DNA from: Gnetum montanum | Taxonomy: Eukaryota; Plantae; Gnetophyta | Assembly (NCBI GenBank): GCA_015680685.1 | Contig: MNCI01000651.1 | Span: forward strand, 310,001 to 374,000 | Reading direction: 5' to 3' | Length of the DNA stretch: 64,000 nucleotides | In this document: piece after piece, positions 1,127-35,963 of the stretch | Layout: each line of letters begins with the position of its first letter | Position numbering within the stretch: position 1 is the stretch's first letter | Notes under the pieces: model-generated | The model's database searches: none | Told to the model about the DNA's origin: nothing | Seen by the model: only the letters and a program-made list of their open reading frames with translations | Made by a program: the position numbers and the translations under genes

Positions 1127-1131
1127 AAAAC

Positions 1132-6035: not shown

Positions 6036-6054
6036 ACCTATTTTTATTTTTTTT

Positions 6055-8075: not shown

Positions 8076-10221
8076 TTAATATATTTCTTTACATTTACTA
8101 GAAGCAAAAGTATTTACTTTTGAAAATTCATTCTCATTGTCATTTATAACATGTTTTCCAAGCCCAACTTCAATAACTCCAATATAAAGATTAGTATTTT
8201 GATCTTCCAAAGATTGATTTTGTTGATCAAAATTTGTTACCACTTGTTTATAGAAAGGATTTCTTGGTATGACCATATATTTAGATTTTTCTTTAATAGG
8301 AATTAATAATTCTAAGAAATATAACCTAAGGAAGCCTCCAAACTTGGCTCCAAAAGTCCTAAATAAGAGCACACCTATAGTGGGTGACATATCAACTACT
8401 AAAATATCTATATAGCATGTAAAAGTAGGGTATTATTTAGGTAATAATTTTACTTCCTTTAATGAACCTACCATAGGTACATTAGATCCATCAGGTTGTA
8501 TCACACTTCTTACTTGTGGTAGCATCCATGCTCCTGATGTTTTACATACCTCAAGTGGCATGACACTAATAGTTGTGAAACAATCCATCAAAAAATTGTG
8601 AACATTCTAGACCAAAGTTTTCATGAAAGGAGGTTAATCTTTCTTTTTTGACATGGAACTGTTTTTGTTTTGTATTGATAATGCATTAGGACTTTTTGCA
8701 AAATGAACTTGCCTTTTGGTTGTTGGAGATTTTTCTTTATTAGTTTCATATGTATGAACTATCTTTTGAATCACATCTTTCATTTGATTAAAATGTAGAA
8801 GATCATACATTGAAATTTTGGCTTTAACTATTTTCAAATCCTCAACTAGATCATAAGTCTTATTTTCATCTTTGGCTTTTTGTTGAGCTGGAGGTCTCCT
8901 AACTATAGAAGGGGTGTTTGCTTTGGATGGTCTGGTTTGATTATTTGTGTTATTTTAACTAGGAGCTCTTCTATTTGGAGGAGTATATTATTTCTAATTT
9001 ATTGTTGTGTGGTGTTCATAATGTCAGTAAGCTTATGGTAGCAAGTGTTATGTGGGTTGGGATCACTTACCATAACTTGTTCCAATGAGGAAACTTCTTC
9101 ATTTTTGTTTCATGAGGTATGTTCAAGACCATATTTAGGGTTTTCTCATTTTGTTACCCTTGGGCATTGTCACCATATAATACTAAAAATTTAGAACAAG
9201 TTTTTTCAAAATGTTTCCTAGTGTTACGAAGAAGACAATAATCATCATTAGTTAATGTGCTCAATTTTTTGGATTGTATAGGAATGTTATTGTTATTTTG
9301 CTTCAATTCAACTACTTCATTGGAAATCTTTTGAAGTGAAGTTAATATTTGTGTCATTTGGTTTTTTTTTTTGACAAGTGGATGCATTAGGATTAGATAT
9401 TCCATTTGGATTTATGATGGATTGGATAAAGGCTTTGGATTGATTGTCACTTAAACTAGTATTTGGTGGTAAAAATGAAGAGGACATGAGGCCTTGAAAA
9501 TAGTTGTTTGTAGATTGAGCCATTTGAAGGGGAGTGGGAGTTTGGAATAAAGTATTATTCATTGAAAAAACTTGTTGTGGTAAAGGGGTAAACTACATAG
9601 GATTTCTAACATTCATCATCAATAATTGAGTTTGAATGCTATTCATCAAGGTAATTTATTCCAACTTAATAACTCCAGCCATTACTTCTTGTATTTCCAT
9701 TATGTTGGGATCAAAGTTAATGGCATAGGGAAAGAATGGGTCAATGATAGAGAGGTAAATATTGAGGATACCATCAGGTTGCAAATGCATTTCATTTAGT
9801 ACATAAGCAAGTTGATGAAGGAATCTTAAGTTGTAATCACAGACATTTTTCCTAGTGTTTTTATTAGGGTTTTAAAATTGCTTGATGCTAAGGAAAGGCT
9901 AGTAAACTTATTGAATTAAAGTAGGAACTTATTTTTAAACTCTTTCCATCAGTTGATAGAGGCATTATGGAGCATAAAAAACCATTGGATGGCTTTGCTC
10001 CTGAAAGTTGTCACAAATACCCTACATGCTATATCATTTTGGACAATGTTATGGATGCCTAATAAGCTTTCAAAACATTATATATGTTGGCAGGCATCAC
10101 TAGCAAGGGTTGTGGGATCCAAGAATAAATTTATGTTTTGAAGTGATTTTTGAATATTGTGATAGTTGGTGAAGTTAAAAAGGTTGCTCACCAAGGGGGT
10201 TAGGGGTTGATTAGTTTCCAT
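8076..10221 (-). pseudogene. gag: Degenerate gag + aspartic protease of the CesA-carrying element
   Basis: Retrotrans_gag-like DIACRVFVTTFRSKAIQWF..ASIN*WKEF. Cys/His knuckle remnant at ~9190-9240. Retropepsin-like LMDCFTTISVMPLEVCK...ILVVDMSPTIGVLL. Confidence 0.8.
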
Positions 10222-11062
10222 CCTAGTTTGGGTTATTTTAGGGATAGAACTTGGAAATCATGAAGCTCATTCTTTTCTTAAAGTGAAATGACAAGTAGGG
10301 GCAAGAGTAGAAGCTATTTGTTGAGATTTATTATAGGACTATTCACTCATAAAATAAAAAATAATAGGAAATGTAAAATGTTAATAAACTATAAAATTAA
10401 AGAAAACAGAAAAATATTTAAATATTATTACTTTTTTAAAAAAAAATACTAAAATTGCTATATATAAACCTTGAAAGAAAAACAAAAAATGAAAAAGTTT
10501 TAGAAAAGTAAATTTAAAATTGGATAACATAATTAATGAAAATCACTTTACCAAAGTTAGAACTAAGGTAAGGACAACCAAAATTAGAACTAGGAAAAGA
10601 AGGTTTAGGATTCTGGAAATAAAACAAAAATAGAGCAATAAAACTAAAAATAGATTATCATTAACTAGAACTAATATTAGAGAAAGGCTAATAAAGGTTT
10701 GAGTAACTAAAACTAGAAAATAAAAGTTTTTAAGAACCAAAAAATAGAAATTTTTAAGTAGCAGAAACTAAATTTTAGAAATAGTAACTGGAAAATAAAT
10801 GACTATCATCAAGATAGGAAACAAAAATGGATAATAAAGGTTTAAGGTAACTAAAAAAAACTAAATAGGAAATTAAAAGTTCAAAATAACTAAAATAGAA
10901 AAAAAAATATTTATAAATGTTAAAGTAGATGGCCATAAACAGAAACTAAAAATAGATAATTAAGAATGGAAAAATGAAATTTTCAAAAAATGGAACCACA
11001 AACCTTTTAGAAATAGAAAAAGCTAATATTTCATAAAATGAAAAACAAAGGATAAAAAATAG

Positions 11063-11079
11063 CCCTCCTTCTAGTGCCA
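11063..11079 (-). promoter_or_regulatory. PBS (tRNA-Asn, one transition)
   Basis: TGGCACTAGAAGGAGGG on the minus strand, next to the LTR. Confidence 0.88.
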
Positions 11080-11085
11080 AAAAGG

Positions 11086-13343
11086 TGTTGATGTATACAT
11101 TTTGGACACATAGTTACCTAAAAAACTCATTTAGGGAGACTATTACCTAGGGTGCCTCCCGTATGGGTATGGAAACCTAAGAATAGTCTCAACTAGAAAG
11201 GGCAATGTAGCATTCCAAAAGGTAAATTGAACTCAAAATTGGAAAAATTTAAATCAAATAAGTATCTTAAATTTTAAGCTTGACAAAAAAAGTAGTAAAA
11301 TAACTATTAAATGTAACTATTAAAATTCTCCCAAGTCTCTTACTACCATCATTCACTATTGCTACTTGATGCCTACTCTCATTCAAAATGAGAGTGACTC
11401 CTGTTCTTCAAACCCTTAGGTCATGGGAAAGAGAGGAAGATAATGAATGGAGAGGGAGAGAGATGTGTTATCTCTTATGTCTTCTACTGCCTACCACTGC
11501 CACTTGCCAAAACCACTCTGCACTAATCACTACTACTATTGTCATTACTGCTGCTGCTGTCACTATTTCTACTACTGCCACTATTGCCATTGCTTCTAGT
11601 TGTTATCACTATCACCATTCATTGGCTCATGCTACCTATTGGCTTTTGACCATTTTCTCGTGTCACCCACCACCATTTTTGCATGCATCTTTGTTAGCAT
11701 TTCACATCACCTACCACTTGTCGACACTACCTACTACCTGTTGGTGTTGCACTCACTTATCGTCATTCATTGCTATCATGTGCTCTCATTTACTATAGGT
11801 GTCGATGGTTGCCATTTATGTTGTGTACCACTACTATTCATACTTGTTGGCACCTCCTATCACTCACCACTCATAGATGCTACCACCATCAATTTTGCCT
11901 GTAGCTATTGACACTAAAAAAGAGGGAGGACTGAAGATCCCCTTTCTACATTTTGCTACTGCCAATCATTTTATAGTAACTCCTAGCTAATGTTCTTAGT
12001 TACCCACATCTACCACCACCACATTTCCACTACCCCATGTGTAGTCCTATTTTTATTTTATTTTTCAGTAGTTTATGTTACACTGCTATAGAATGGGACT
12101 AACGTTCTTAGGAAGGAAGGGATCGATACATAGCCAGAGCAATGAAAAAAGGGAGGCCAGAAAAATGGATCACATGAACACAATTGTGGCATCTGATTAT
12201 GTATTCACATGAGCCCTTTTAGGAATGGATACAGATGCAAAACCACCTACATAGTAAAGAAAACCTTGCTAAACAATAAACCCCATGACTAGTAATTGTT
12301 ATTTGTAGTAGTAGAAATGCCTACAATGAGAGCCACTAGATTTATTATCATCAGTGTCTTCAACAGAATCACCGAAGTAGTCCACTTGAACAAATACAAC
12401 TTTACAAATTCATCTTCATCATCTACTGTAGGTTTGGCTATAACCATGAAATTGGTATCCACTATGCCTAAAACTTTTAGTAGGCCTTGTACCATTGTGA
12501 ATAAGTGAGATGAGACTTTGGTGATGACCTAGAATTGCTTATTCCTCCAGAATTCTAACATGGAAACCCTACTCCAGTGTAGCTTTAGAATGGATGTTGA
12601 GATGATTGTGAAAAACATGCATAGAAACTAGATATTGGTGATTCCTATCAATCTAGATGTTATGAATTTGTTGGTGAGTAGGCACATGGATAGGAGTGTG
12701 TAGTAGGCCAACAAAGGAATGGAGGTAAAAGGATAGACTACTGTGCTTATGTATGCCATGTGTTGCAGGAGTTTTAGTTTGGAGCAGTTGTTGTTTTCAA
12801 TGTTTGTGTTGGATCCTAGTCCCTAGGAATACCATAGTGAGAAATGATGGCTTATGAAGATCCCAATGGATCCCAAAGCCCAACGAAGAACTATTGAAGA
12901 TTCTTTCATTATATTCTCCAATTGAATTTTATTCCTTCATTGATCCTCATCTTTCAAACATTTTTTTAATGTCTACATGTTTAACATATTTGAAGTTGGA
13001 ATAGGATTCCCTATGCTATGTAACCAATCTTACTTTATATTACTTTTCTATTTTACTAGAAGCTCAAAGAAACAAAAAAATTAAAACAAAACTTGTTTGG
13101 CTAATTGAAGTTAATGTTTGCTAGCAAGAAATTATTCTACTTATCCCTACTCAATTTAGGATATCAAACAAATTAAATTATGGAGAATTTCATGAAAAGA
13201 TTTGTTGATTAATGATAATAATTTAAAGGTTGCATGATACCTTTTATTGAAAGAACCCCTATTCAAATCATCAAACCATACCCTAGTGCTTATACCAATA
13301 AGTCATAGCCTTGTGTCTAGCATGGGCAATGTTGGCATCAATA
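11086..13343 (-). repeat. 5' LTR of the CesA-carrying element
   Basis: Adjacent to the PBS; starts tgttgatg on the plus strand; direct repeat of 5015-7333. Confidence 0.93.
12065..12894 (-). pseudogene. CesA: Captured CesA C-terminal fragment, copy 2
   Basis: VLRWALGSIGIF...VQGLLKVLGIVDTNFMVIAK..LYLFKWTT..NNNY..LHLYPFLKGL..QCNINY*; retains the terminal TGA. Confidence 0.95.
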
Positions 13344-16300
13344 GTTATATATAGAGTTAAAAAAAGTAAACAGATTATAATAAGGGCTAAATAAAGGTCA
13401 AAAAAGGTCAAACAAAGGAAAGTATAAGACTACAAATGGTCAACATTGATCATATTTTTGCTAGTTTAAGACCTTAGTAGGACATAATACTAGTTTAAGG
13501 CCATAACAAGCCATAATGCTAGTTTAAGGTCATAGTGGGCCATGGTTACACAGTGTCAAACAGTGATTAGGGAAGGTCAAACTCCACCATCCAACACCAA
13601 TCAAAGACTTAATAAAGGTAAATAAGGCTATATTAAGGTAAAAAAAGGAAAATATAAATCTCTGTACTGGTCATAAGAAGGTCAACAAGGTTGACAATGT
13701 AACACAAGGCCAAAATCAAGTCAAAACATCATGAAATAAGGATAAATCAAGATAAATAGATTACATATGATGAAATTTGACTAATATAGATAAAAAATGA
13801 TCAACTTTTTCCAGTTTTAGGCCTTAGCAAGCCATGGTTTAAGGTTAGAAGGGTCATGGGTGAGTTTGGTCATCAATTAGTGCTATTTTTGGGCTATTTA
13901 AACTTAAAAATCAAACGTTTTGAGGCGTCCACATTGGGTTCCCCTATTTCCATACTATCCAACATGAAAGAAGTGATCCCTAGTATGAAAACAAATGATA
14001 GTATGTTTTGGGACATCCAAAGGTCCTAAATTGATGTTTTGGGGGCTTCTCAAGGCAACGTAGGGCTAGATCCATCAAAATTAGGCACTCTAAAGGCTGA
14101 TAAAGGCCAAAATATAGGTTCTAGAGCTTAATCTCCTTACTTCCACATTGAAAAGCATGGAAGGAAGGGAGCACAATGTACAAAACTAAGATCCAAGTAT
14201 AATCAAGGTCAAATAATGTTAAACTAGCATCAAGAACCCATATCTGGGAGTTGTACATTCCCTAGCCTCATTTTGAGGCCATTTGAGTCAACTTCTAGTT
14301 CTAGGATAAGTTGAAATTACTTTTCCACCTTCTTAAATGATGCATTTAGCATCCCTAACATGGAAGAATTAGAGGAAACTTGTTCCAAGCTTTTGGAATG
14401 GTTTGGGAGCACATTGACCAAGTTTTTAGACCCCTAGGTTTACATATCATGATTTCCAAAGTTTCTAGCTAATTTTGGTAACATTTGGAGGTCAATTAAG
14501 GGCATCTAAGGTTTTACACCCATATTTTAACACTAGGGGAGTTTCTCTAGCATGGAAGATTATGGAAAATGAGTTTTGAATGCCAAAATGAAGTCAAACA
14601 AGCATAATCTCAAGGCTATGAGATCCTAGGCTTCTTTGCCATAGATTTTTTATCTCCGAGAGTGTCAACACCTGTCACCAAATGTATAAAAGTAGCTTTT
14701 CCACCTTATTTTCATGTTGTCCAACATGGAAGGGACCTTCTCTAGTATGGATGAAATAAGAATCCTAGATCTAGACCATCTTGCAACATAATCAACTACG
14801 CATGTTAGCTCCTAGAGTTGTCAGGGTTAAGGGCTAAGGTCTTAGGTCAAACTTTGGTAGTTTTAGGTATTCCTAAGTGGTGTTTTTGCTTTTCCCCCTT
14901 TTTGATTCTAAGGTCAGAGTGTACAATGTGGATCTAATTGGTGACATCAAGGGGCATATATTTTTGGCCATTGGAGGTTAATTCTGCAAGATTTATGGGC
15001 TCTGGAAGATGCAAACATGGTCTTATGGTACATGAAAAGTTGTAGGGTATGTTCTTGAGGTGTCTAAGAGTTATTTTTGAATCCCCAAAAAGTTCCTCTT
15101 ACTTCCACATTGGCTAGCATGAAATATTTTGCTCCCAAGATGGAAGAACTAAGGAACCCTACTTTTTGCTATTTTTGTCACTTCTAGCCATGCATGTGGG
15201 TCTTCAAGATTACTAGTGTCAATCATTGATACCTAGGGTTAAAATGTGGGTATTTAAATCATTGTTAAATGGTTTTTAATGTTCTTATTTTTCTTCCATG
15301 CTAGGATTCTTATTTTCATCATGGAAGATTAAGGGAGCTAGCGTTTGGCTATCTATGATCAATTTTGGAGAGTTTGTAAGTTCTGTTATGTATAAATAGT
15401 GTCCCCCCCACCCAACAAGATTTCTAAGGTATCTAAAGGTCATCTTCATGTACCCCAAAGGTTTCCCATTTCTTTCATGCTAGAAAACATGGAATAGCTA
15501 ACTCCTAGCATGGAAGAGCTAAAGAACTATGCCTTTTTCTAGTTTTTATTAGTTTTGGATATGCATGTGTGTCCATAGGGTTGTTGGTGTTGATTGTCAA
15601 TGCCTAGGGTTAATATCTACAAATTTTGAGGGTTGTAAGAGTGTTTTTTGGCTTCCCCCACTCCATCAATTCTAGGTTTTAGATTATCACTATGGATAGG
15701 ATCCTCCTCATTGTGAAGAATCTAAGGGAGGCAAGTTTGGATAATATTAGTTACCTTTTGGAAGTCCAGTGGCCTTTCAAAAGAGTTGATTTTCTTCTAG
15801 AAGTTAGTTTTCATGGAAACTTCAATAGTTTTGGATTCCACCATTTCATCCACATTGGGACTAGGATGCTTAGTGTGAATGAGGTCCTCCATAGTGCTAA
15901 AGAATTGTAGGTGATTGGATTTTATTAAATTTTAACATTTTGGTGACTTCTAGAGAGGATGTTAAGGTTCCAGTGTAGGTACAAGGAAATTTGATGTTGT
16001 TTTCATGTATCTAGGACCCCACTAATCTTCCTAGCTACATCCACATTGTTTACATGTTGGGAACATGGAAGAGGTCTTCCCTAGTGTGGATGATCCAAGA
16101 ATGTCAGATCTAGGTTAGTTTGATAGCCAATCAACAATGCATATCAACCTCTAGGATTGTTGATGTTGATGGTTGATACTTGATGTCAAGATTCACCAAT
16201 TTAAAGGCTTCTAGGTGCCTCATGTAATCATTTCCCTTTCTTCTATTCTTGGAATGTTGGCCTTTGTATGGATGAGAGGAGGATCGTATTTTTATGCTAT

Positions 16301-17459
16301 GCTTTACTACTTTTGAGACATTCAAAATCTCTAGTGGGTTCTAATAGGGTCTAGGGATCACCAAAGTAGGTTATTTGGCTGTTTTAGGTCATAACATAGG
16401 TTTTCTTACATATCCCCTAGGTTTCCACATTAGTTCCACATTAGCCAATGTAGATAGAGGGTTTTCCATCACAGAATATGCTATGGATGAAAAATCAACT
16501 TGTTTAATGATCAAACTACACTATTGGATGTTGTGAGAGAGTACTAGGCTTTGAAAAATGGCTACTAGGTGTTTGATTAAGGTAATTTTTGGCATTCCAC
16601 CATCCATCCATGCTGAGGCTAGGATGATCAATGTGGATGAGACCTCTTCCAACATGGAACCACCAAATCCCAAGGTTTTGAGTACATGCAACTAGATTTG
16701 GTGAGGTTTCAGGGTTGCTGGGGGTGATTAGAGGGGTTCTATGTTATGTAGGCCTACTTTGGGGGTCAAACCTAGGCTAGATTCATGTTGGGAGGTAAGA
16801 ATGAGTGTCACTTTCCTTTTTTCATGTTGGGTAATTTTTTCCTAGAATTAAAACCCAAGATGTCCAATTTTGTTAGTTTCTAACCCCATTTCAGAGCCCG
16901 AGATTAAAAAAGGTAGGTTATAACTACTAAAAATGTTAATAAAATAATGTTTTAATGGTTCTAGGAGGTGGGAGGCATGTATCCATGCTAGGAATGGCAT
17001 CCCTAGTAGGGATGCATGGGAGTTAAGGTCAAAATATTTTTCTAGATATCCAAAGGGGTTAAGAACCAATGTTGATGTAGTTTCAATGTTAAAAGTGAAG
17101 TTGTATGTTGGGGTTCACTAGCCAAAATTTAAATTTTTGAAAAGTAAGGTTATTTCCAATTAATCCCAATGTTGAAAATAATTTTCCACCATTACACTTA
17201 AGTTCACTTGGAGTTATGATGAATTGAATTGGAAATTGGGGTTGAGAGATGGACATTTAGGTTTAATTTGAGTTTTTATTGTCAAATTGTAAACGTTTCA
17301 ATAAAAATATTCATTCCTATCAAATGGTGCATTTGTAGAGATCTCAAGTAGAGAATTTTGTAGCCAACATAACCCATCCTTAGTTTGGATGCATTAGATC
17401 TTCCCTACAACTAGCATTGAACCTCTATCCTACCCAAATTTTAGAATTTTCCAATGTTG

Positions 17460-20400
17460 GTGCAACTATGGTGTCCAAGCAGCATGGAGGAAAGAAAAAA
17501 AATCCATGAATTCAGAAGGTAGGACAGAATGCAAGAAACCAATTATGACTCTCTATATCTATCTCCATCAAGTATTCATTTGTGGCTACCCCAAGGTAGA
17601 CAATTCTAACTATTCTTCCTTCAGTTTCTAGTCATTTTTTCATACTTTTCTTGCCCTGTGTATGGTGATTTTCTTTAGAATGAAATTTCAATGAAATATT
17701 ACATCATGTATTTGCTAGTTATATGTAGATATAGGATTTTTTTCATTGGTTTGATCTTGGGTAGATTTGGTTTTTAAATACTAGGCTTGCTATTTTCATG
17801 TTTTTTTTTTCTAAAATTTGGGGATAGTGCCATTTTTCTTAGATCCTGGCTTTAATGTTTGTGAAATTTTAATTTTAAAAAAATGCTACCCCATTATTTT
17901 GGTGTGGTTTTAAATGCGTATTTGGTTTTTTGGCTATTATGGCTACCTTGCATGGCTATGTTAAGTTAGGCTTTATGAAATTTGAGCTTTTTTTGGTGAC
18001 TTTTGTATGAAAAAAGCAAGCAATGTTGTGTATTTTTTACTAAGAAAATGACTATAATACATTTAGAATTTGATGTTATGGATTTGTAGCTCTATGTTTA
18101 AACTTTTCAATTGCTATGGTTCCATTCAATCTTGGTTTAAAACAATGAACTTGTGGCTATTGGTAAGGTTGTGTGGTTAGGTTTTTGTGCCATTTTTTAG
18201 AATTTCATGTAAATTCAAAATTTTTTTCTAAGTAAAAGGCAGTGGATTTGGCTATTTTTTAGTTGTGGTTAGGTGCTTCATGATTTCAGCTTTCCAATAG
18301 AGGTATAATCACTTCTTTTATATTTGAAACAANNNNNNNNNNNNNNNNNNNNNNNNNNNNNNNNNNNNNNNNNNNNNNNNNNNNNNNNNNNNNNNNNNNN
18401 NNNNNNNNAAGGTAGGATAATTTTTAATAAATTTTTTATCTAGGCTATGTTAATAAGGCTAAATATTGGTTGTAGCACTTTATCCCTTAGGAGATTGATA
18501 TAGTTGACATGCTTAGAGGTCTCTATTGTCAACTTACATATCCATGGGTATGTCCTAAAATGTTTGTAACACTCTAAATCTAGTTTTGAAGGTTATAAGA
18601 AATTTTTACTATTTTTGGTAATCTTCATGCTATTGCCTATTTTTTGGACTCTGAATTTGGTTATGTCAATTTGATGTGCTATCTAGGCTATAATGTTTTG
18701 GCTATGATGTATAAGGCTACGAAAGGTTGTAATAATATTGTCATGAACTTATTAGGAAAACTTGAATAAACATCTTAGAGCTTTTTACAAGGGCTAATTT
18801 CACCCTTGACTAGGATGTTTTTTGAAAACTTGTTAAGAAATTTTGATCGATCATAATAATAATTTTATTTTCTTATTTTTTTATTTTTATTTTTTGCTTT
18901 TACATGCAAGATCTTCTTGAAGTCCATACTCATCATTGTTGAGTTGCTAGGAATTTTATGCTACATTAGCCAGACTAAGGCCAATTCCCCCTTAGCTAAC
19001 ATGACCTTAGACAAGGTCTCACTATGGTTTCGGCTAGGGCAAAGGGACTTCCTTTCCTAGATCTTTTAAAATTTAGTATGATGCTCTAGTCACACTTGTT
19101 TGTGGATGTGGCCAAGGTTGTTGTGGAGACACTAATGTATTTTGGGATCCAGTTTGATCACTAGGTTCATCACTAATGATCTACTGCCTAAGACAATAAG
19201 GAAACTAGCAAACATGATTAGTCCATGCTACCTTACAAAGATCTAGACTATGCGAGAGTATAGGTAGTATAATGCTAATAATACTTTGATGATGGGACAC
19301 AGAGTCCACACATTGTTTTAGAACTTTCCTAGCACCATGTGTCATCTATAGTGATAAGCATGGTTGTTATAGTGTTTTTACATTTTTTTCACTTTATTGG
19401 CTAAACTACCTTTTCTAACTTCATCAGTTTTGTGAATTTATTGTAGGTACAAGGTTAAAAATAAAATCTTGATAACTAACAATAAAACCTTGGTGGTTGC
19501 TCAAGCCTCATAAGATGAATTCACCAAGGATTCCCAAATTATAACTATTGTGTATGAACAATTAACAGGGAACTTTGATGAATACACTAAGAGATTGACC
19601 CTATATATAAGAAGTGTGTGGACAACAAGATGATACACAATTGGTGGATGGGCTCCAAGAGCATCTTGGATTAGATCGTTATAGCTCAAACCTTTGCTTA
19701 AACAACACTGAAGAAGAAGAAGAAAGGTAAACATAAGGGATATAAATTCTAATGTTTTATGGTCATTAAATTTTTAAGAGTTCTATCATTTTAAGTAGTT
19801 ATTAAACATGCCTATGATAATGCCAAACATTTGGTTGTTACCTTGTAGAACCTTCCACCTCTACCAATGTTACTTGATTAGTTTTAGGATGTCATGATGA
19901 TACCTTTACCCTAAAGTTTGGTGAGGTGATACCAACACAGGAGTGGCTTAAGGGACATGCACCTAGATACATTCAAGAAAAAATCAAGCATGTGGGTTTT
20001 CTTGATCTCTTCATGGTACCTATCCCTTCCATCCTTGATGTAGATGTTTTGCATGTCATCAACTCCTTTAATAAAGAGACCAATCATTTCAGCACCACTA
20101 TTTTAGGTGTACCAATTATCATAGCCGTTGATGAGGACACCTTTTACAAATTATTTCATGTTTCTGCTAATGGGGGAAAGGTTACCATCAAAATAGTGAA
20201 GGAAGTAAGCCATTTTAAGGACGTTTTGGAGTGGCTTGATGTTGGCATTGACCACTCTAGGATTTTCATGGATAGCTTCATGAACCTTAAGGCAAAGACA
20301 TCATATCCTTTGTTTAGGTCACATGTGTTTCGCAAACTATTGTTGTAGAAGAAGGTAATTGACATCATGTAGGGGTGGAACTTTAAGAGGGTCTTGATGG

Positions 20401-22620
20401 ATGACATCAAATTCAACTAGACACTTGCTTTGGTTGTTGGGCTCTATGATGATATTCTTAAACTTCACAATGACACATCCATGATAATCCAAATGCATTT
20501 TTCATTCTTTTTGGATTATCTAATGAGGTTCATGGAGTTCTTGGTGGTGTGAAGGAATGGACGATGGGTTACCCAAGACCCAAAACAACTTTCTAGGCCT
20601 TGGATAAAGCACATTTATCCATCCATGTAGGCCCAAAACTTACCAAATGAGATGGATGATTTATTGTCTATTACCACTAAGGATCTTGATTTTAGGTGAT
20701 GAAAATACCCTAAAAACATGAATAAGGAGCCTCTCATGATTCTAGTGAGTGTTCTAGAGGCCAAATAGCAACATAGAAAAGCCAAAGGAGTAGCCAGGGC
20801 TAAGCTTAATAGGCCCATAGAGGAAGCACCGCTAGTGTCAAAGAAATCCACCTAAAAGAAGCATAAGTTTAAGGTTAGGAAATCACATCAGGTAGTCACA
20901 AATATTCTTTATAGATGTTTTGGTCATTCTATGTTTTAAGATTTTATGGCTACATTATGGTTTCATGTGCTAATCCATTTTCTATATGTTATGGTTGTAG
21001 ACAAGCATTAGGACATGGTAGCCCAAGTTGTCATGGAGGAGGAAGCATAGAGACATGTAGCTACTAGAGTAGAGGAGGAGTAGAGGCATGTACAAAAGAT
21101 GCTATTATAGTAGCATGAGGCTAAAGTACTAGCCAACATATATATATGTTATCTAGATGCCTTGTTCGATGAGGCAATACCAAGTATATCTTCTATCATC
21201 ATCCCAAAGGAAGAAGAGGAGGAGCTAGGTATGCACACGTCTTAATACTTCTCATTATATCTTATTGTTTTAAGTTTCATTTTTTCCCTAACCTTTAAAT
21301 TATTGTTATGGTTATAGTAGTTCCTAAGCCACCAATGTAGGCCCCTATCCCTATTGTTTTTGCAAAACCATGGGTGTAGGTCCTAGAAAAGGTGGAGTTC
21401 ATGTGTAGGATGGCCAAAGACATCATCAACTAGTTGCATCAAGTTTCACCCAAGATAGGTAAGAACTTTATTTTCTATGCTTTAGTCATTTTGATATGTC
21501 ATATGTTGTGTTTATGTTGTGGCTATCTTAGTTTGTACACTATGTTTATGATTGTATTTTACATTTATGCAATATCTTCTATGGAGTAGGGCCCTAGCCA
21601 AGACATGGAGATTGGCTCCTTACCAAAGTTTCCCTTCAATGTCTATAGTGTACCCTTGAAGTTGTATGAGACTGCTACTAATCTAGCAATGTCATGTGAA
21701 AAAACCTCATGGGATCTAGAGAGGCCCAATCAATCCCCATGGGAGCAAGTTATGGCCTTGAGAAAGAAAACTTAATGAGAGGAGAAGGTGATCAAAAATC
21801 TCTAGGACTGTAAGGCCTTTGTGAAAGTCCAAGAGACTAACTCATGGAAATTATGGAGCAAATAGATCATGTGGACCTACTACTAGCATGCCATCTAGAA
21901 TAAGATAGCACTCTCATGGGAGATGGTAGAGCAATAGATGTAGATGGACCTCATCTTCCAAAAGGTTGAGGATTGAAAAGAGCACTACACTTGGATCCAA
22001 GAGTAGGGTAGAAAAAAAAAAGGATCATAAGCAATAATATAAGGCTAATCATGAGACCTACCTAAAGTGGCTCAAAGAGAAGTTAGTTGAACAACACAAG
22101 AGAGAGCTATTCATTTATGATATCCAAGCAAAGAGTGCCTAACAACTCTTTGAGAATACTCTCATAGTGGAAAAATCCACTCCTCCTCATATTACCATTG
22201 TTGCAAGTGAGACCTTTGTGGCTACTATTACCCAGGAGCCACCTATTTGGACTATAGTAGAGAGGAGTGGCATCCTCACCAGCATTGATCTTGGGGATAT
22301 TGATTGGGCCAATATTATGAACGACTAGATCCTCCATTGTTTGAAGGATGGCCTTTCACATCTATCCCCAGAAGTCATGGAGTTAGAGTCTCCACAAGTT
22401 TGATGCATTTTATGTTTTAGTTTTATTTTATGTTATGGTTTTGTATAGGTTATATTTTTGGGTTTTTGGTTACTGATTTGCTATGTGTTATTGTATTTTA
22501 GGCATCAGGAGACATTGGTAACCCTAGCAGTAAGGGTGGGATGATCCATTACTTCCTCCTCTAGATGCCCCCTAGCATCCTTCATTTACCTCTTTCAGCT
22601 TGTTGGTTATATGTCTTTTA
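17460..22620 (+). pseudogene. Antisense multi-exon accessory gene of element B (PMD / plant-transposon-protein-like domain plus an E/K/Q-rich C-terminal part)
   Basis: GT..AG introns with T-rich acceptors: donors 17596, 19727, 20892, 21229, 21459; acceptors 19446, 19848, 21000, 21317, ~21572, 22501. Exon translations align with those of element E. The domain call is by eye only. Confidence 0.7.
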
Positions 22621-23295
22621 TTTTTATATTGATGGCTATTGTTAGCCAAGACTATGTTATTGACAACTATTATTTTTTGACAATTTTGCCACATAGTATG
22701 ACCATGGCTATGTATGTTACAAACATTTTAAATTTAAACTTTGGTTTTATTTTGGCTATATATATTGCTCTTGTGTTATAAATGTTGTAGTTTGTTATGT
22801 TAATAATTAAAGTTAAATGGGTAGTTGATGGGATTATAGGCTAAACATAAATATAATGGAAGAGATGTTTGCTAGTTTTAGTCCATGGAGGGAATAGGTT
22901 GCATTTTTTTTTGCCAATTTAAGATCATGATATGACATGTTGCATTGTGGTTACATTACTAGTTTTAGGCCATGATAAGCCATGTTGCCAATTTAAAGTC
23001 TTACCAAACTAAGGTTGAAGAAAAACTTATATTTTCAAGTAATTTTTATAGTTTTAACGTTTTTATGATTTTTTTAAAGTTTATGTCATGCTAAATAAAG
23101 AAATAAATAAGGACATAATAAATGAAAATGTAATTAAAATAAACTTATAGACTCTCTACATAAAAAGTAGAATAAAACATGGAGAAAAAGGTAATAATTG
23201 GTCAACAAAGAGAAATCTTAGGTTAAATGATCATGGTAAAAATGGTTATAAAGGTCATAAGGATGCAACATGGAAGGAGTAGAAGTGCATGTTAC

Positions 23296-26200
23296 TTGTG
23301 TAGACTTTTCTTAGTCTTTGAAAGATTAGGAAATGTATAAGTATTGTTCTACACAAGTTTGTACTCATAATTCCCTTAATTAATGATGTTGAAAGGGAGC
23401 TCATCTAATGACACATCCCATTGCCCATCATTATTATTCATGGCTTGCTCCTTTCTTTTGAGTTAATGGACTTCATGGCTAGGAGTTTCCTCCTAAATCT
23501 TCACTTTAGAACCCTACTCTATGTTCACATTGTTGATAGCCAAGGAAACCACACTATCACCATGAATGATGATTTTAACTCCCTCATAAGGGAGGTGATT
23601 CTCTTGGTGGATAGGTCAAGACACAAATTGTAATTAAGCCAACCAAGATCTTCCTAGGATAAGGTTAAACCTCGACATCTTCTCCACCAGCAAGAAATTG
23701 GTGGTTGTGGAGAATTACTCTGCTACCAAAAAGTCCAAGGAGATAGACCCCTTGATAGCAACCCTTGATCTATTGAAGGACTTAAGAGTTATAGTTGTTG
23801 TAGGTTGTATTTGCTCTATTAAGCCCAAGCATTCAATGATGGTTCATGGGATGACATTTCTTGTAGCTCCATCATCAACATTCACCTGATGCACTTTAAA
23901 CTACCCTCATCAAATGATTATAAATAGAGGAGTCCTAGTTACTTTTCCATTATGGGAATTGGCCTTGATTTTGCTATTATGAAATACTATGGGTGTTGAC
24001 TTCTCCTCCCTTGGTGGGGAAAGAACCATCACTATATGGATGGATTCCATGTTAATGAGGATGGTGTCACTAACATAGATGGAAGTCAACATTTTGACTA
24101 GCATCTCATGATGTGTAGTAGAAGTCATGACCAAGTTATATACACTTAAAGTTGTATTCTTTTGCTTGAGGGATTGTCTGACCCAATCCATCACACTAAG
24201 GAATTTTTTATTATAGGTCATGACCTTGTCACCCCATTTGTGTTTCACTTCCATCATGCATCCCAAAATGTGAATTTTGGTTTTTGGTGGTTGTTGCTAG
24301 GGATTCACATCTTTGTTTTGGCTATGGATTTTAGGGTCCTCCTGTGTCTTGTTAGTTGAAGTAGCCTAAGGAGAGGAAGTCATGGGTGTTGATGAGATGG
24401 GAGTAGGCTTTAATGGGTTCACTTGCTTCCATGACTCTCTTTGCTTATCACCCTTATTTCTAGGATTTTACTTATGCTTCTTCCTTTGCTTTGTTAACAT
24501 CTTATGGATGTTAATCATTGGTTGTGAAGAAGAGGTAGTAGCATTGGCTTACATAGGAGGTTGTTGTATGGCCATATTAGTTGGTTGGGCCATGGATAGT
24601 GAATTTGGGTTAGGTTGGGATACCCTAATGACAAAAGGATTCCTTAGAGGTACCTAGGATAGTATTCTCACAACAAAAGTAGATCTTAAGCTAGAGGAAG
24701 TTAAAGAGGCCCTTTCATCATGAGGGGTGGGGGTGGTACATGGATCATGAATAATTCCCTTGTTGATCTTTGATTGTCATCAATGTTGAATTTTAAAATA
24801 ACATAAGGGATATTATTAGCATTCAATGGGTCCTTTTACACTTTCTTTGATTGATTTTGTGATTGAACCAAGTTGGAAGCATCCAAGACTAGCTCTTCCT
24901 TATTTATCATTTTCTACAAGTCATCCTTCAATGCAAGGTAAATTTCTATGTCATGACCAAGTAGTTGGTGATAGTGGCAAAATGAATATAGTTTAAAATA
25001 CCTAGGTAGTTAAGGATAATTCTTTGTTTCTTGAGTGTAGTCCTTAGCTATTTCACATAGCCACTTGTGCTTATTTCAAGTGGCTTCAATCATCTCCTTG
25101 TATTACATGTGTCCACTCTTCAACAATTGATCTAAAAACTTGGATGGTTTTAAAGGTAAAGTAGTGTACTTGCTATGGTCCTTTCACTCAAATGTTGGCT
25201 TGGTTGTAGTCAATGTAATGTCCATAGAGATTGATGGTTAGTTATCATGGTCATTTGTGGATTCCTTGGGTGGGTTGGCCCTTGGCCCCTGTTTAGTGGT
25301 CTTATCTTCTTTGTTCATAGTTACTATAGTCATATTTTTGTGTTTATTCTTCTCCTTCTCCCTCTATGCATGTTGATTTTTTTTATGCTATGTAGGTTGG
25401 GTCATGACTAGCCTTTGCAACATCCTCTATGTTCTTGGTTTAGGAGAACACTTGGCTAAAGGATCATAAGTTAAGGTAGTAAAGTGAACTTGATAAAGTC
25501 ATTAACCACTTGCTTAAATATAACCAAAAGGTGGGCTTTGACTATGGGCTCTATTATTTTGTTTAGTAGCTCATTCAACTATTGGATGAACTTTTGTATA
25601 TGTTCTAGGAGTCTCTACTTGACCTTCATCAGTTGGTTAAGCATTCTGTTAGGCTTCAAGTTATACTTGAAGTGGTTAACATAGTAGGTTATTAAGTCCA
25701 CAAGAGATGATATGGTTCCTCTAGGTAAGGCATAGTACCAATCAAGCACTTTCCTAGTCAAGGACTAGAGAAAATCCTCATGATAGTATGAGGCCACAAC
25801 TACAATAGCAAGCACTCAAATTTGAAGATTATAAGGGAAGCATTGGGATCACCTTATCCATTATACTTGCTAAAATAGGGAATAGGAACAATAGGAGGAA
25901 GTGCAAGGGTGGGATCATAGGACTAATGGGATCATCTTGATAGAAATCCATGACCTTAACACTTTGGAAAGTAGAGGCTTTGAGTCTCTTCAACTTCTCC
26001 CTTATGTTTTGGATCATTTGGAAGGCTTGATCTAGGCATTGTGATGGGCCTATTGAATATGGGGCTTGCACATATGCTTGTAACTCCTATTATGAGGCTT
26101 GTGGCATGACTATTGGTGGCAAGATAGAAGGGAGTGGTTGTGTCATGGTCATAGTTTGTGGACCAAACAACAAAAAAGATGTTTGTGCTAGTATCTAAGG

Positions 26201-27000
26201 GAAAAATGGGATAAAGGGGATGTGTGACCCTTAAGTTGCTTAGGGTCCCATGGTGGATCCCACATGGATCATTAATGGGTTTTTGGTAGTAAAAACTACC
26301 ACTAATGGCTACATAGATTGGGGCTATATGGTAAATAGCATCAATATGTCATAAGTCATTAGTTGTAACATTGATTGAGTTTGATATGTGGCTATGACTG
26401 ATGTGGGATTAGCCCTAGTAGGCTAGGAGGAAGCAGAAGATGATGGAACCATGCCCATGGAGAAAAAAAAAGGCATTAGGAGAAGGCCTAGTGCCCTTGG
26501 GGGATGTCTATTGGAACAACCCTGCTAGAAGGTTTTTAGGATTATATTCCATCCTAAAGTCGTCCTCTTCTTCTTGTTGTTCCTCCAAGCCATCCTTTCC
26601 ATCTTCCTCCTCCATCTTAATCAATTGAGCTAGGATGCTAGCATAGATATTGTTGAGAGATATGTTTTCATACATAAAAGTAATATACTCCTTTACATTC
26701 CAATGTATGAGCTCAAACTTCATTTTGGCTTCTACTTTCAAACATGGAATCAACATGCTAGCCTACATTTTGATGCAAATGTAGTTATAACAATCTTCAT
26801 TTATGGTTTCATAGTTAGAAATTTTCCCTCAAACCTTCAAATACTACCTACATTCAATGATGGTAAGGTCTTTAATGTCATAGACCCTCATGGCTTGTTG
26901 GCTAACACCATCACTAATGAAGATGAAAGGAAACTTGGTCGATTGGGAGAAAGACATGGCTATTTTGTTGTGAATTACTTGAGGCTAGCTATAAAAGGTA
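23296..27000 (-). pseudogene. gag: Degenerate gag-protease of element B
   Basis: Gag core KYNG*GDP...KVLDWYYALPRGTISS. Knuckle CHYHQLLGHDIE at ~24950. Protease VNVDDGATRNVIP at ~23860. Confidence 0.85.
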
Positions 27001-27669
27001 AATATAGCATCAAATTTTAGCAAGTGGAATCTAAAAAGTGTCAAAATAAGTAAAAATGACTAAAACAAGGTATGTAATATAAATAGTAAGTGGTAGGTAT
27101 GGGGGTATACCCCTTTAGCAAAAATAGAAAGTTGGAAAGGTTGGCACCAAGTCTCATCCATGTTGGCCTCTTAGTTGCCTATATGTTGGGTATGGTAGGG
27201 GAAAAAGAAGGGGGTGAGATGGGGGGATCTCACACCTTTCCAATCAAATGTTGATGAGAGGGAGCAATAAGCTGAAAACCAAATTGGAAAGTTGAAATTT
27301 TCCACTAGAACCTAGTTTTGGTATGCTACCAATTTTCTCATCTTTGAAGGATGGGGCTTTAGTTGCATTCTGATAGTTTTATGGTTTCTAGAAAGGTTGT
27401 ACCACCAACATTGAAAAACTAAACAAAAATTGGTATAAAAATAAGGGGGATGATATCAAAGATGGACTTAGGCTAGAAAATACATACCAAGTCTTGTAAA
27501 AAATTAAAACACCCAAACACCTATAACTTCCATGCTAAAGTTTCTTTCACAAGGGGGAAGGGATAGCATTGATTTCCAAAATTTGTTTCTTGCAAAAATT
27601 AGGAGACACTTTAAATGGAAACATTGACAATGGGGGAGATAGATTTTTTACAAAGAGATTAGGAGGAGG

Positions 27670-27686
27670 CCCTCCTTCTAGTGCTA
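27670..27686 (-). promoter_or_regulatory. PBS (tRNA-Asn, decayed) of element B
   Basis: ccctccttctagtgcta on the plus strand. Confidence 0.85.
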
Positions 27687-27692
27687 GAAAAC

Positions 27693-29151
27693 TATTACAA
27701 TTGGAAAAATATATTTCTAGAAAATTGAGAGATCGAGCATAGTAGCCTCAACTCCAAATTTCCATGTCCTTAGGAAAATGAGATTTGAGATCCCCTGGAT
27801 GGTCTAGCAGATCACCTAGGAACTTACAAAATGCAACACTAGGGGTTCAGAAAATAAAATGGAAAAAATTGCAAATCTATAAAATTGAAAGCAAATGCAA
27901 ATCGCACAAAAAATGAAACTTAAATGCTTTATTTAAAATAATAAATAATAAGTTCTAGAAATTTATACAAGAAATTTTTATGATAAAGGAAAGGGTAGGT
28001 TCATTGGGGTAGGAGTTCAAATCTTGTTGAAGCTGATGTGATCTGCTCCATGATTTAGATGCTCAACTACTCCTAATGCTTTTGAACCTCCTCTACCACA
28101 ACTTCAAATATTCAACTTTGATCACTATTAGAGGGTGAGAAGAGTGGGAAATTTTGCTGCAAAATTTCTCCATGATGGGAGTTGGGAATCCCAAAATGTA
28201 GGGTTGAAACCAAAACTCCATAAGCGTTAGGGAGGTAACAAGGCCACATTGGTTCCATGCTAAGGGTTCCAAAACATTGTATTTTCAAAGTGTTGCAAGA
28301 GATCTTGGAGGCCAAAATTACTATGTGCTCAAAAATGCCAAAGTATGGAACTTGAAAAGGGTGTTGGAGCTTTGATTTTATAGGTTTTCGACCATGCTTT
28401 TTGCTACAAATGGGTTGATAGATTGGTTGAAAACTGCTACAAATTTCTACCTAGTATAAGTGAGATGGGTGCCAATATTTTTGGGGTTGGCATATATAGT
28501 AGGTGCTAAACTTCGATGGCCATTCTATTTAGTATAAATAGTAACAAGGGCACATCTTCTACTTTGGAGATAGATCTTTAACAATGAGCCTTCTACCATT
28601 CTTGTTGAAGTAGTTGGTCAACCTTGAACTCATTAGAATGTAAAAAATCTTACTCATGTTGCTTCCATGCTATGGGTATGTAGTTTCCATTATGGCGGTG
28701 GACCCTCCATGCTGGGGAGAAAGTTCCATGCTCAGGGGGAAAGGTTTCCATGTTTTGCATGTAGTCTCCATGTTTAGGATGAATTTTCTATGTTGAGGGT
28801 GAAATCCCCATCCCTCCACACTAGAGGTAGGTGAGATTTAACATCTACAAGTTTTTCTAGTGTAGAAAAGTGTATACCCCCCATAAAAACTATAAAATTG
28901 TCATTTTTAGCAACCCAAAAGGCATTTTTGATCCCTAAGCCCAAATAGATACTACGTGCCTCTTTTCACTTGGGGAATAAGGCTTTGACCACTTATGAGG
29001 TATTTTCTAGTTCCAAATGTGTGAAATATGTTAAATTGCCTCTAATGGATTACAATCTTCATATTTACAATGAAGTTTTACCTCGGCTTCCATGGGGTGA
29101 AGTCTACATGTTGAAAATTGGTTATAACATGTAAATTTTCATGGTGTTTCA
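27693..29151 (-). repeat. 5' LTR of element B (~1.46 kb)
   Basis: Starts TGAAACACCATGAAAA on the minus strand; reverse-complement homolog of 31063-32531. Confidence 0.87.
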
Positions 29152-29944
29152 ATATATTCCTCATTACTACAATCAAATACTTGATAAAGTGGGTTAAGGA
29201 TATTTCCCTAAGGAATACTCTATCCAAACAAGTCTATAAACTTATCCTAGATAACACTGTAGCCCATTTATGCTTATCCATGACCATAGTTACAAACAAT
29301 GAACCATAATTTAATAGCCAAGAAAAAATTATTTCTATAATGACCTAGGCATTAAGCATTCTTTCTCCTCACCTTATTAGCCTCAAGCCAATGGACACGT
29401 TGAAGTAAGCAACAAGGGCATCATCAACTTGCTCAAGAAAATGCTCAATAATAGCAAGCCTAAATGGCATGAGCAACTTGTCCATGCACTTTGGGCCTAT
29501 TTTACAACTTAAAATATGGCAACTAATGTAACAACTTATATATTTGTTTATGATTCTAAAGCTATTTTATCTCTTGAATTTCATGTACTATCACTTCAGG
29601 TGACACAAACTCACTCCATCAATAATGAACAAAGCAAGGAGTTGCAAATTACAGACCTAGACTTGGTGGAGGAGCAACATATGCAAGTGCTTACATAGGT
29701 TGAGCACTATCAAGAGAGGTAGAAATGGAAATACCACCATAACTTGACCAACTGTAAGATCAAGGAGGGTGACATGGTCCTCAAAGCCATATGTTAGCAT
29801 GTGGATAAACTCTTAGCCAACTAGAAAAGGCCCTTCCTTGTCACTAGATATTATTGTAATGGAGCATTTAGGATAGCTAACATGGATGGGAATGATTTGA
29901 ATAGTTTGGTTAATCTTTTTTATCTAAATTCATATTACATGTAG
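29152..29944 (+). pseudogene. int: Integrase core and C-terminus of element C
   Basis: IKYLIKWVK..TIVTNNEP, PQANGHVEVSNKGIINLLKKML, WHEQLVHALWAY, GDMVLK, KGPFLV; stop at 29942-29944. Confidence 0.9.
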
Positions 29945-29974
29945 TTAATGATCATCAACAATCAAACCTACTTT

Positions 29975-30130
29975 ACCATAGCCTACCAAGGCCTTAAATC
30001 AGTAACATGTTCTACTAAGGTCTTAAATAAGTACCATAGTCTGCTATGACCTTAAATAAGTACCATAGTCTACCAAGGCCTAAAATTGGTGCAATGGCTG
30101 ACCATGGCATTAAACTGGCAACATTGGTAA
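29975..30130 (+). repeat. ~29-bp tandem repeat (ccatagtctaccaaggccttaaataagta-like), about 5 units
   Basis: Visible periodicity; related copies at 13460-13545, 22870-23010, 39395-39495 and 63960-64000. Confidence 0.8.
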
Positions 30131-31062
30131 CCCAGGTAGCTTGGTTTTATCATTTCATATGACCTGTATGCATTGTCATATTATAACATGTCTTATTTTC
30201 TTGGTTTTCTTATCCTCTTGGAGTTGTATTTGTAGGATGAAGCTTAGGACCATCGCAAGGATGCAACTTATTATAGTAGCAAGTCACTACGTGACCTTAA
30301 TTTGCATGGTTTAGTGAGTTTGTTCTACTATTTTAAGGGTGGTTTTACCATTTCCCTCCATCTAGCACCACTCCTTAAATCCAACCCCATAACCTTATCA
30401 TGACCTTCCATACCTTGGGAAGTAATGTTGACCTATGTTCATCACTCATGCACTATAGCCATATGATATATCTACCTAGTGCTCTATCTTCAAGTCCACT
30501 TGAATGTAACATAGCTCACTTAGTGGGAAATCATTATGCCCATCAAACATAACACATCTCATTCTATGGGATAACCACCAAGTCCATTGAGTGTAACACA
30601 ACTCACTCAATAGGAAAACCATGTCAAACTGGCCCTAGCAATTAGACCAAATGAAGGCTTCATCCCACATAAGAAAACAAAAGAGGGAAAGAAAATTTCT
30701 AAGAAGATAAATGTACAATTAAGCCTCAAATCCCAATGACCAAAGAAATCTTGGAGCAAAGTGATTGGATCCTCATATGCATTTGTCAAGTGACCAACAC
30801 TTCAAAACATGTTAGTTTCATGCTATAGCCATGAATGTCAACAATGGAATGCATTGTTAACCTTTATAACCATCTTCCTAATGACCATTACCATGATATC
30901 ATTATAGCCTTCTCCCATTATTACAAGCACTCTTTGGCATGGTTTGACATAATTGGATCAAGCACAAAGAATAAGCATTGATGGTGGACCTGTTATGATA
31001 TTTTTTATTCTTTGTTGATGCCTCTCAAGTCAATCCTCTAGATAACACCAAATAAGGACCAT

Positions 31063-32531: not shown

Positions 32532-33059
32532 ACCATCATAAAATTGCTCAAGAAGATGCTATATAATAATTAATGCAAGTGGCATGAACAACTTATCAAT
32601 GAGCTTTTGGCCTACTGAACCACATTCCAAATTGTAATCGGTGTAACCTCATATAGCTTAGTTTATGGTCTTGAAGCTATTATACCTCTTGAACTATAGA
32701 TGCCATTGTTCCAAGTAGCCTTATCAAACTTCATTAATGATGAACATAATAAAGAGCTACGCACCATGGATCTAGACTTAGTGGAAGAGAAACAAGTGTG
32801 AACACTTGCTCATGTTGAGTGGTACTAGGAGAGGCAAAAATGGAAACATTATCATGACCTAGAAAAATACAAGATCAAGGAAGGAGACCTAGTCCTCAAA
32901 CCTATCCTTGAGCATGTAGAAAAATTCTCAACCAACTGGGAAAGTCCTTTCTTGGCTATTAAGGCCTACGACAATGGAACCTTAAAGATAGTAGAAATGG
33001 ATGGGAATGAGCTATCCAAGTTAGTTAATCATTCCTTCCTAAATACTTACTACATGTAG
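32532..33059 (+). pseudogene. int: Integrase C-terminal half of element D (interrupted by C)
   Basis: TIIKLLKKML..WHEQL..SLVYGLEAIIPLEL..KEGDLVLK..NWESPFL; paralog of the C integrase. Confidence 0.9.
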
Positions 33060-35940: not shown

Positions 35941-35946
35941 GTTCTC

Positions 35947-35963
35947 TAATGCTAGAAGGAGGG
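35947..35963 (+). promoter_or_regulatory. PBS (tRNA-Asn, decayed) of element E
   Basis: taatgctagaaggaggg. Confidence 0.8.

Follow-up and report, generated by a model that had tools for sequence, protein, structure and literature searches.

The 64,000-nucleotide stretch of DNA analysed here (contig MNCI01000651.1, positions 310,001 to 374,000; hereafter the window) contains two decayed copies, B and E, of a gene that runs antisense to the gag of its host long terminal repeat (LTR) retrotransposon. On balance, we favour the reading that they belong to a Tat-type Ty3/gypsy family with a conserved, intron-bearing antisense gene, most likely located between gag-protease and reverse transcriptase (RT), which would encode an accessory protein of about 1,030 aa in which a captured phosphatase domain serves as a non-catalytic nuclear binding module. 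That the gene is real, under selection and spliced is considered very probable. An intron-containing antisense gene inside an LTR retrotransposon had been proposed by an earlier, sequence-only reading of the window, and this was upheld by one exact splice junction in a relative and by 3'-end reads opposite to gag. The same reading had noted neither the phosphatase domain at the N-terminus nor the location between protease and RT.

An antisense gene with introns in two decayed copies

A model of seven exons fits both copies (Table 1). Six introns can be placed in B (17596-18909, 19354-19446, 19727-19848, 20902-21000, 21229-21320 and 21459-21572), two of them with intact GT..AG ends; in E, four of six are intact. 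The earlier proposal of at least five GT-AG introns therefore held for the number of introns but not for the state of their ends in B. Canonical splice dinucleotides were found at 8 of 12 positions in B, at 9 of 12 in E, and in at least one copy at 11 of the 12. At homologous positions, five sites are canonical in both copies, four of them donors (introns 1, 3, 5 and 6) and one an acceptor (intron 5), in agreement with the claim of at least two coinciding splice sites. At about 57% DNA identity, the count of shared canonical sites alone would be weak evidence. Stronger evidence for splicing is provided by the matching phases, the T content of the introns and the read-derived junction described below. 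Intron phases agree between B and E for five introns (2, 2, 1, -, 1, 1; intron 4 is unresolved in E), and T content on the gene strand is 0.40-0.63 in 12/12 introns versus 0.23-0.32 in the 13 exon pieces printed. The donors of intron 2 and of B intron 4 were set by alignment and phase, without an intact GT. Intron 2 has AT at its donor in B (19354) and in E (52789) alike, at a phase-compatible place, which could represent parallel decay or a non-canonical intron. The acceptor motif reported as recurring, TGTTATGGTTRTAG, does recur, but only twice (20987-21000 and 21304-21317), where 0.15 occurrences were expected and 1 of 100 shuffles had two.

The open reading frame (ORF) most likely stops at 22405, as a contig piece from a relative is unbroken over 22285-22442, and not at 22620, where the feature had previously been ended. 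A seventh coding intron at 22401-22502 was considered and rejected, since a contig piece runs through it unbroken. A stretch of about 1.1 kb is missing from E (window 39507-39590), and with it the gene's 3' end and the greater part of exon 7.

B and E run colinear between the position pairs 17834/54549 and 27946/35674 (B/E), with E split by a nested element. The exon similarity on which the sequence-only reading depended proved significant, as seven of eight exon-by-exon comparisons had scores reached by none of 500 shuffles, exon 1 being marginal (5/500). The three exon translations reported to align do so, and their motif blocks sit in exons 3, 4 and 7. Exon 2 of B against E scored 204, versus 27.6 for shuffles. 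Exon 4 of B (19839-20690) aligns to that of E (52229-51378) without gaps at 36% identity over 284 aa, with 205 bits in the coding frame (BLASTP E 6e-61) versus 79, 71, 56, 40 and 39 bits for other frame pairs. Over 503 stop-free codons compared between B and E, identity by codon position was 0.55/0.67/0.45 and dN/dS was 0.34 (bootstrap 0.22-0.47), below the 0.52-1.14 obtained in 24 frame tests of four non-coding homologous pairs, which supports the proposed purifying selection on the protein. Because the blocks used for dN/dS were picked among tblastx and alignment hits, conserved parts are favoured; post-insertion decay acts in the opposite direction.

For transcript evidence, eight sequencing runs of the same species label were aligned at 80% likeness. 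The reads stem from other copies, because nearly all of those aligned were less than 90% alike. One contig (1390 bases, depth 17.1) of run X7, whose RNA status is a guess, joins position 21457 to 21576; 118 bases are skipped with 4 letters between, giving the 114-base intron 6, and the shorter side of the joint measures 87. The same contig has a joint across intron 5, given without its inner letters. Another contig (depth 2.9) joins 21226 to 22616, perhaps an isoform skipping exons 6-7, and the fit begins at 21576 for a further contig and for four oligo-dT reads. At 82-85% identity to B, the contig pieces are far nearer to it than E is and therefore come from the subfamily of B. Reads pile up at 22616-22742, three of them ending in an A run. 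At 22628 the first mate is on the minus strand, meaning RNA on the gene strand, in 40/42 reads of run X1 and 39/40 of run X2. In run X3 the bin depth was 8.62 versus 0.03, the strand rule being fixed there by a poly-A loose end elsewhere.

Several observations weigh against the preferred reading at this level. The case as a whole is built on two dead copies, a single junction and a single adjacency. The gene model depends on these two copies only, and 45 stops interrupt the roughly 1,025 codons of B, along with four or more frameshifts. The dS is near saturation, and one reverse-strand frame of exon 4 gives a similar dN/dS; this frame has more stops and the wrong codon-position pattern. Only one intron is shown exactly, in the run with the guessed RNA status, and the raw reads of six runs have no listed joint within the gene. 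Some reads also fall in the introns, the gene body has reads of either strand, and depth is low.

The predicted protein

Whole-frame Pfam scans of the gene gave no match. In exon-wise scans, 1 of 10 pieces matched, namely exon 2 of E, to NIF (PF03031; E 3.5e-7, 30.5 bits versus a curated cut-off of 21.8). This exon also matches TIGR02245 HAD-IIID (E 7.6e-6, 25.6 bits, cut-off 192) and the UBLCP1 structure 3shq (E 0.0064), the three matches being to one family and not independent proof. They cover the middle and end of the phosphatase domain. Judged by these matches, exon 2 of E is very likely to encode a domain derived from FCP1/SCP/UBLCP1-type HAD phosphatases. Exon 2 of B alone has no Pfam match, which may be because its middle is in another frame; the shifted middle matches E (0/500 shuffles). 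Speaking against the assignment, the NIF match is confined to residues 31-106 in E, the TIGR02245 score is far below its cut-off, and a profile built from B and E has no PDB match. The protein does not qualify as a UBLCP1 orthologue (25.6 bits vs 192, with only about 40 aa before the domain). Among metagenome contigs, 0 of 116 pattern matches to exon 2 were real; a fold prediction with pLDDT 42.7 was unusable, and weak NCBIfam matches at E 0.16 were dismissed.

The FCP/SCP enzymes are described as requiring the first Asp of DxDx(T/V) (PMC7281111, PMC11951701). This motif is absent from exons 1-2 of either copy, and one D-x-N string in E lies mid-domain. HMMER aligns the Asp-Asp of UBLCP1 (3shq) to Gly-His, which is found in both copies, and at the position of the first catalytic motif, assigned by eye, both copies have Glu in a hydrophobic run. 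Neither the Glu nor the Gly-His codons represent simple C-to-T decay in the two copies, and as the replacements are common to both, they predate the B/E split. Because DxDx(T/V) is missing and Gly-His replaces Asp-Asp in both copies, the domain is likely to be catalytically dead. A point against this is that the first catalytic motif was placed by eye and was aligned by no tool.

The protein had been suggested to have a core like PMD or a plant transposon protein. This found no support, as exon 4 of neither copy matched PF10536, PF20167 or DUF1985 in Pfam at E up to 10, and no TRP28 profile matched, the sensitivity being limited in both cases by decayed queries. None of the candidates from a word search was real, either at near length (0/342) or among longer ones (0/4550). 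HMMER over 1.84 billion representatives gave one hit and no true homologue; the hit, a bacterial WD40-repeat protein, was rejected as it was matched by summed repeats. Metagenome contigs (0/470 real) and PDB gave no match for exon 4, its fold prediction was unusable (pLDDT 33.6), and a WH_PARP12 match (E 0.011) was dismissed as weak. By eye, the motif spacing gives a PMD-like impression. The K/R-rich stretch that ends exon 4 is a possible nuclear signal. For the coiled-coil-like tail proposed earlier, a crude heptad test gave scores reached by 77-285 of 300 shuffles in four segments, so the tail was not retained.

Host element, alternatives and related systems

The window is AT-rich and plant-like, shows strong decay of methylated contexts (CG observed/expected 0.08, CAG and CTG 0.25 over 13400-40400) and contains nested old LTR elements with LTR pairs 75-79% identical. 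These traits point to a large genome, as of a gymnosperm or a fern. On the minus strand, the order in B is LTR, primer binding site (PBS), gag-protease, repeat zone, the gene, region X, a second repeat zone, a nested element, and RT followed by RNase H (RH) and an additional RNase H (aRH). Pfam on 4926-2857 gave RVT_1 (E 2e-13), RT_RNaseH_2 (E 6e-17) and, below its curated cut-off, RVT_3 (E 0.0025). Eight long RT homologues were found, with identities of 22-50%; plant polyproteins account for the six that have names, and PF13456 (aRH-type) is present in five of the eight. E remains homologous to B until it runs out of the window, at a point some 230 bases short of the RT frame. The CG/CHG decay is alike in RT, gene and gag and older than in the nested elements. 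In D and F, two further copies with LTRs homologous to those of B, integrase lies directly before spacers of 1118 and 1002 bases, respectively, and an LTR. No tRNA or Rfam match was found, and neither gag nor protease has a Pfam match; in B, both were assigned by their position and by characteristic motifs. The PBS is presumably of tRNA-Asn type. An assignment of 27700-29150 to integrase was rejected, the region being an LTR.

The family order is most likely LTR, gag-protease, a spacer of about 10.0 kb with the antisense gene, RT-RH-aRH-integrase and LTR, about 22 kb in all. The gene probably sits between protease and RT and not after pol, because RT-RH-aRH follows region X once the nested element is subtracted, the RT frame has no protease in front, the spacers of D and F carry no gene, and B/E homology extends nearly to RT. 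In terms of classification, LTR, PBS, RT-RH and the integrase of D and F place the element among Ty3/gypsy LTR retrotransposons, no single copy showing both LTRs. The aRH after RT_RNaseH places it in the Tat clade, and its location between RH and integrase, with protease fused to gag (the protease by motifs only), in the Ogre/Retand type. The TatII and TatIII orders, with aRH before RT or after integrase, do not apply, as aRH comes directly after RH. An antisense ORF in the 3'R-type position was not found either, since the integrase-LTR spacers hold no gene remnant (2/14 tests were marginally above 40 shuffles).

Behind the protease ORF, conservation between B and E stops at a shared AA|GT, the DNA behind it is T-rich, and a pyrimidine-rich AG lies before RT. 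By analogy with Ogre, the spacer of about 10 kb is probably a sense intron. Against this arrangement, only B shows RT as a neighbour, and the reads, whose coverage there is near zero, contain no joint between the sense donor and the RT acceptor; nor do the phases of this donor and acceptor obviously match. Region X contains no LTR remnant and no second copy of the gene. It has degenerate repeats of 170-270 bases in B (14700-16217) and of about 195 bases in E (61978-62785), carrying CATGGAA-like motifs that are also found in the LTR and are possible promoter repeats.

Judging from this layout, a promoter of the gene's own, located in region X, would drive transcription against the element, and the antisense mRNA would be spliced to give a nuclear accessory protein. 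The introns could survive retrotransposition because the packaged RNA would be the other strand. The spacer, if a sense intron, would be spliced out for pol expression and kept in genomic RNA. More speculatively, the dead domain may bind a phosphorylated host partner (the tail of RNA polymerase II, or a factor of chromatin or of RNA processing), while the exon 4 domain could tie it to the DNA or RNA of the element. The benefit, at a guess, could be that the 22 kb element stays transcribed, that its long genomic RNA with the intron retained can be handled, or that silencing is resisted. As the cassette is bracketed by co-oriented repeat zones that are also found after integrase, it may, speculatively, have moved from a post-integrase place by recombination. 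The role of a nuclear pro-element adaptor is a tentative suggestion, somewhat less likely than not. A more specific version is unlikely to be correct, namely that a seven-exon gene in a 10 kb sense intron encodes a dead carboxy-terminal domain (CTD)-phosphatase fused to a PMD/VANC-like DNA-binding domain, acting as a reader of phosphorylated RNA polymerase II or as a host-phosphatase decoy that sustains transcription. If true, such a protein would amount to a counterpart of the host PMD-phosphatase module that a transposon had arrived at independently.

Other explanations should be weighed against the favoured one. Copies B and E could be non-autonomous, consisting of LTR, gag-protease and antisense gene, with the RT at 4926-2857 coming from an unrelated truncated element and the gene in the usual place before a lost 3' LTR. 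This would fit the contiguity with RT in one copy only, the missing sense splice joint, and the repeat zone after the protease ORF, which is like the post-integrase one and with which the pol-3'LTR regions of Retand are described to begin (PMC11963269). However, no LTR remnant was found between gene and RT (score 143; true LTRs scored 1532 and 358, unrelated controls 109-130), the RT frame comes without a protease of its own, B and E are homologous almost up to it, and copies with the same LTR carry integrase, which makes this explanation improbable. It is very unlikely that the gene is a passenger, captured with its introns from the host or a DNA transposon, and that the transcripts come from a domesticated or host copy. 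In gymnosperms, transposable elements are described as capturing genes very commonly (PMC13477047), the spliced contig could come from any genomic locus, and dN is higher in the gene (0.54) than in gag and integrase (0.28-0.38). The low dN/dS between copies whose dS is near saturation, the same site in both elements, and the closeness of the contig pieces to the subfamily of B all argue against a passenger.

Two alternatives concern the protein. An atypical phosphatase that is active in intact copies, the missing aspartates being an alignment error or private to B and E, appears improbable. In its favour, the placement of the first motif was by eye, B and E are both badly decayed, and another Tat-type lineage is described as having an active captured host enzyme (PMC9289625, PMC12786077). 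Yet the HMMER alignment of Asp-Asp to Gly-His, the sharing of Glu and Gly-His by copies that are 57% identical in DNA, and the absence of the motif argue for lost catalysis. A better prospect, still short of likely and compatible with the favoured reading, is that exon 4 is a very divergent PMD/DUF1985-type domain, so that the protein would be of the antisense PMD type of Tat elements, extended by a phosphatase domain. Antisense PMD ORFs are reported as typical of TatIII and Ogre (PMC4408406; PMC6317226, with 431 Ogre 3'R matches), and PMD-phosphatase fusions to have arisen twice in host genes (PMC7156037). The impression of the motif spacing noted above points the same way; the empty profile and homologue searches and the unusable fold prediction count against it.

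Antisense extra ORFs are described as common in Tat elements, with TRP28 in Retand (PMC11963269) and PMD in TatIII and Ogre (PMC4408406; reviewed in PMC7264820). The domain table of PMC6317226 lists no phosphatase, only 21.4% of extra genes there having a CDD match, and the accessible text of a 121-angiosperm screen names none (PMC9289625). Multi-exon antisense transcripts of Arabidopsis Copia elements have been reported as non-coding (bioRxiv 2024.04.02.587720). The literature consulted, mostly non-subscription, describes no antisense gene that is spliced and sits between protease and RT, and no LTR element with a NIF domain. The principle of antisense extra genes is known, while measured against this literature the cargo and the introns appear new, and probably the position as well.

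Ogre resembles the present family in the protease on gag, the RT-RH-aRH order, a protease-RT gap and antisense extra ORFs in the clade (PMC6317226; PMC4408406), and in pea and Medicago the gap is reported to be an intron (PMC6317226). In contrast to the gap of about 10 kb here, that of Ogre is given as averaging 274 bp and holding no gene (PMC6317226). Its extra ORFs, mostly PMD, are placed 5' of gag or 3' of pol (PMC6317226; PMC4408406) and not in the protease-RT gap, and its PBS corresponds to tRNA-Arg (PMC9289625), unlike the type assumed here. The ORFs of Retand, Grande and RIRE2 are likewise antisense, conserved, beside tandem repeats and of unknown function (PMC11963269, PMC7264820). They are reported to have their own promoter, and in Grande a nuclear location (PMC11963269, PMC7264820), both of which are also proposed here. 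They lie between pol and the 3' LTR and carry TRP28 with no phosphatase domain, and a text search of PMC11963269 gave no match to 'intron'. The antisense PMD ORF of gymnosperm TatIII is also an extra gene in a Tat element, possibly of the same kind of host (PMC4408406), but has aRH after integrase and the ORF at the 3' end, whereas here aRH comes right after RH and PMD was not detected. An orchid Ty3/gypsy element with a captured AlkB/2-ODD demethylase shows that a Tat-type element can fix a host enzyme domain in an extra ORF; unlike here, that enzyme is described as active and gag-pol as a single ORF (PMC9289625). Compared with the FCP1-SCP/UBLCP1 (NIF, PF03031) phosphatases, which the domain resembles over its middle and end, DxDx(T/V) is absent, Asp-Asp is replaced, and the domain is fused to unknown domains and encoded by an element. 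The MAIN/MAIL1-PP7L and MAIL3 proteins offer a functional analogy, combining a transposon-related domain and a phosphatase domain in silencing control (PMC7156037; bioRxiv 2024.09.27.615353), but they are host genes with a PPP-family phosphatase and true PMD-C (PMC7156037), none of which is shown here.

Most antisense extra genes of plant LTR elements have no recognisable domain and no established role. A phosphatase-derived domain makes function concretely testable through activity, phosphopeptide binding and partners, and it appears that the element has recruited a host enzyme as a binding module, possibly in aid of its own expression. Because of the gene-bearing 10 kb gap, such elements can be expected to be annotated wrongly as separate fragments, and the exons as host phosphatase genes. 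As aRH directly after RH is described in PMC6317226 for angiosperm Ogre and Retand only, a gymnosperm or fern host would widen its range beyond angiosperms.

Other copies and nested elements

Table 1. Features of the window, with coordinates counted from its first letter.
Feature	Position	Strand	Remarks
Copy B of antisense gene	17468-22405	+	decayed copy
B exon 1	17468..17595	+	ATG at 17468; 42 codons, 2 stops; weak match to E exon 1 (5/500 shuffles); donor GT aligned in both
B exon 2	18910..19353	+	predicted FCP1/SCP (NIF, HAD-IIID-like) domain; catalytic Asp positions not conserved; middle frame-shifted
B exon 3	19447..19726	+	one frameshift near 19592
B exon 4	19849..20901	+	conserved domain of ~280 aa without family hit, then basic K/R-rich stretch
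B exon 5	21001..21228	+	acidic
B exon 6	21321..21458	+	3' end is donor side of contig joint
B intron 6	21459..21572	+	excised exactly in a relative's contig
B exon 7	21573..22405	+	up to likely stop; frameshift in A run near 22013
3'-end read pile-up of relatives	22616..22770	+	approximate antisense mRNA end, from read alignment
Copy E of antisense gene	54731-39590	-	decayed copy
E exons 1 to 5' part of 5	51004..54731	-	exon 2 at 53242-52790, with Pfam NIF match
E 3' part of exon 5, exon 6, truncated exon 7	39590..40385	-	beyond nested element splitting exon 5
5' LTR of B	27697..29151	-	starts TG; 75% identical to LTR 31063-32531 over 1475 aligned bases
PBS of B, decayed	27670..27686	-	same motif after LTRs of elements A and E
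gag-protease of B	23295..27100	-	conservation with E ends at donor-like AA|GT (23295)
Short-repeat zone after protease ORF	22860..23060	-	homologous and co-oriented with zones 13459-13543 and 29974-30086
Region X	13349..17400	.	upstream (promoter side) of antisense gene; far end common to E (63558-63989, 67%)
Younger nested LTR element	5015..13343	.	perfect 5-bp target duplication; interrupts B just before RT
RT, RH, aRH	2857..4926	-	same strand as B gag; no protease in front
E LTR, PBS and gag	34062..39125	+	protease region deleted; ends at same donor-like AA|GT (39125)
Copy D, family 3' half	29153..32531	+	integrase core (rve_3, E 0.079, weak), 1.1 kb spacer without gene, 3' LTR
Copy F	32532..34061	+	integrase C-terminus, 1.0 kb spacer without gene, before LTR preceding E

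In E, about 900 bases including the protease are missing (window 23345-24243 vs 39060-39074), with a short pre-donor block kept. Nesting within the same family was seen over 29153-36000, where the 5' LTR of B abuts the integrase of D and the 3' LTR of D abuts that of F. The LTR of F is followed by the PBS and gag of E, forming a tandem that shares one LTR, so there are two apparent insertions into the family's own integrase gene.

A younger element, A (1-2850, minus strand), cuts the pol of B after aRH. Its LTR has a CG observed/expected of 0.65 and repeats of 18-19 bp, its intact PBS is of the same type, and its gag start is related to those of B and E. The nested element at 5015-13343 has LTRs 75% identical and relatives that are well expressed; most aligned reads of one read set fall on it, with poly-A loose ends near 10446 and LTR-junction reads. 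Related LTR pairs are nested in E at 40386-51003 and 55537-61818. The former contains inverted duplications (42040-45264 vs 45287-49839) and assembly gaps, and the latter has Copia-like integrase and RT ORFs at 58207-59182.

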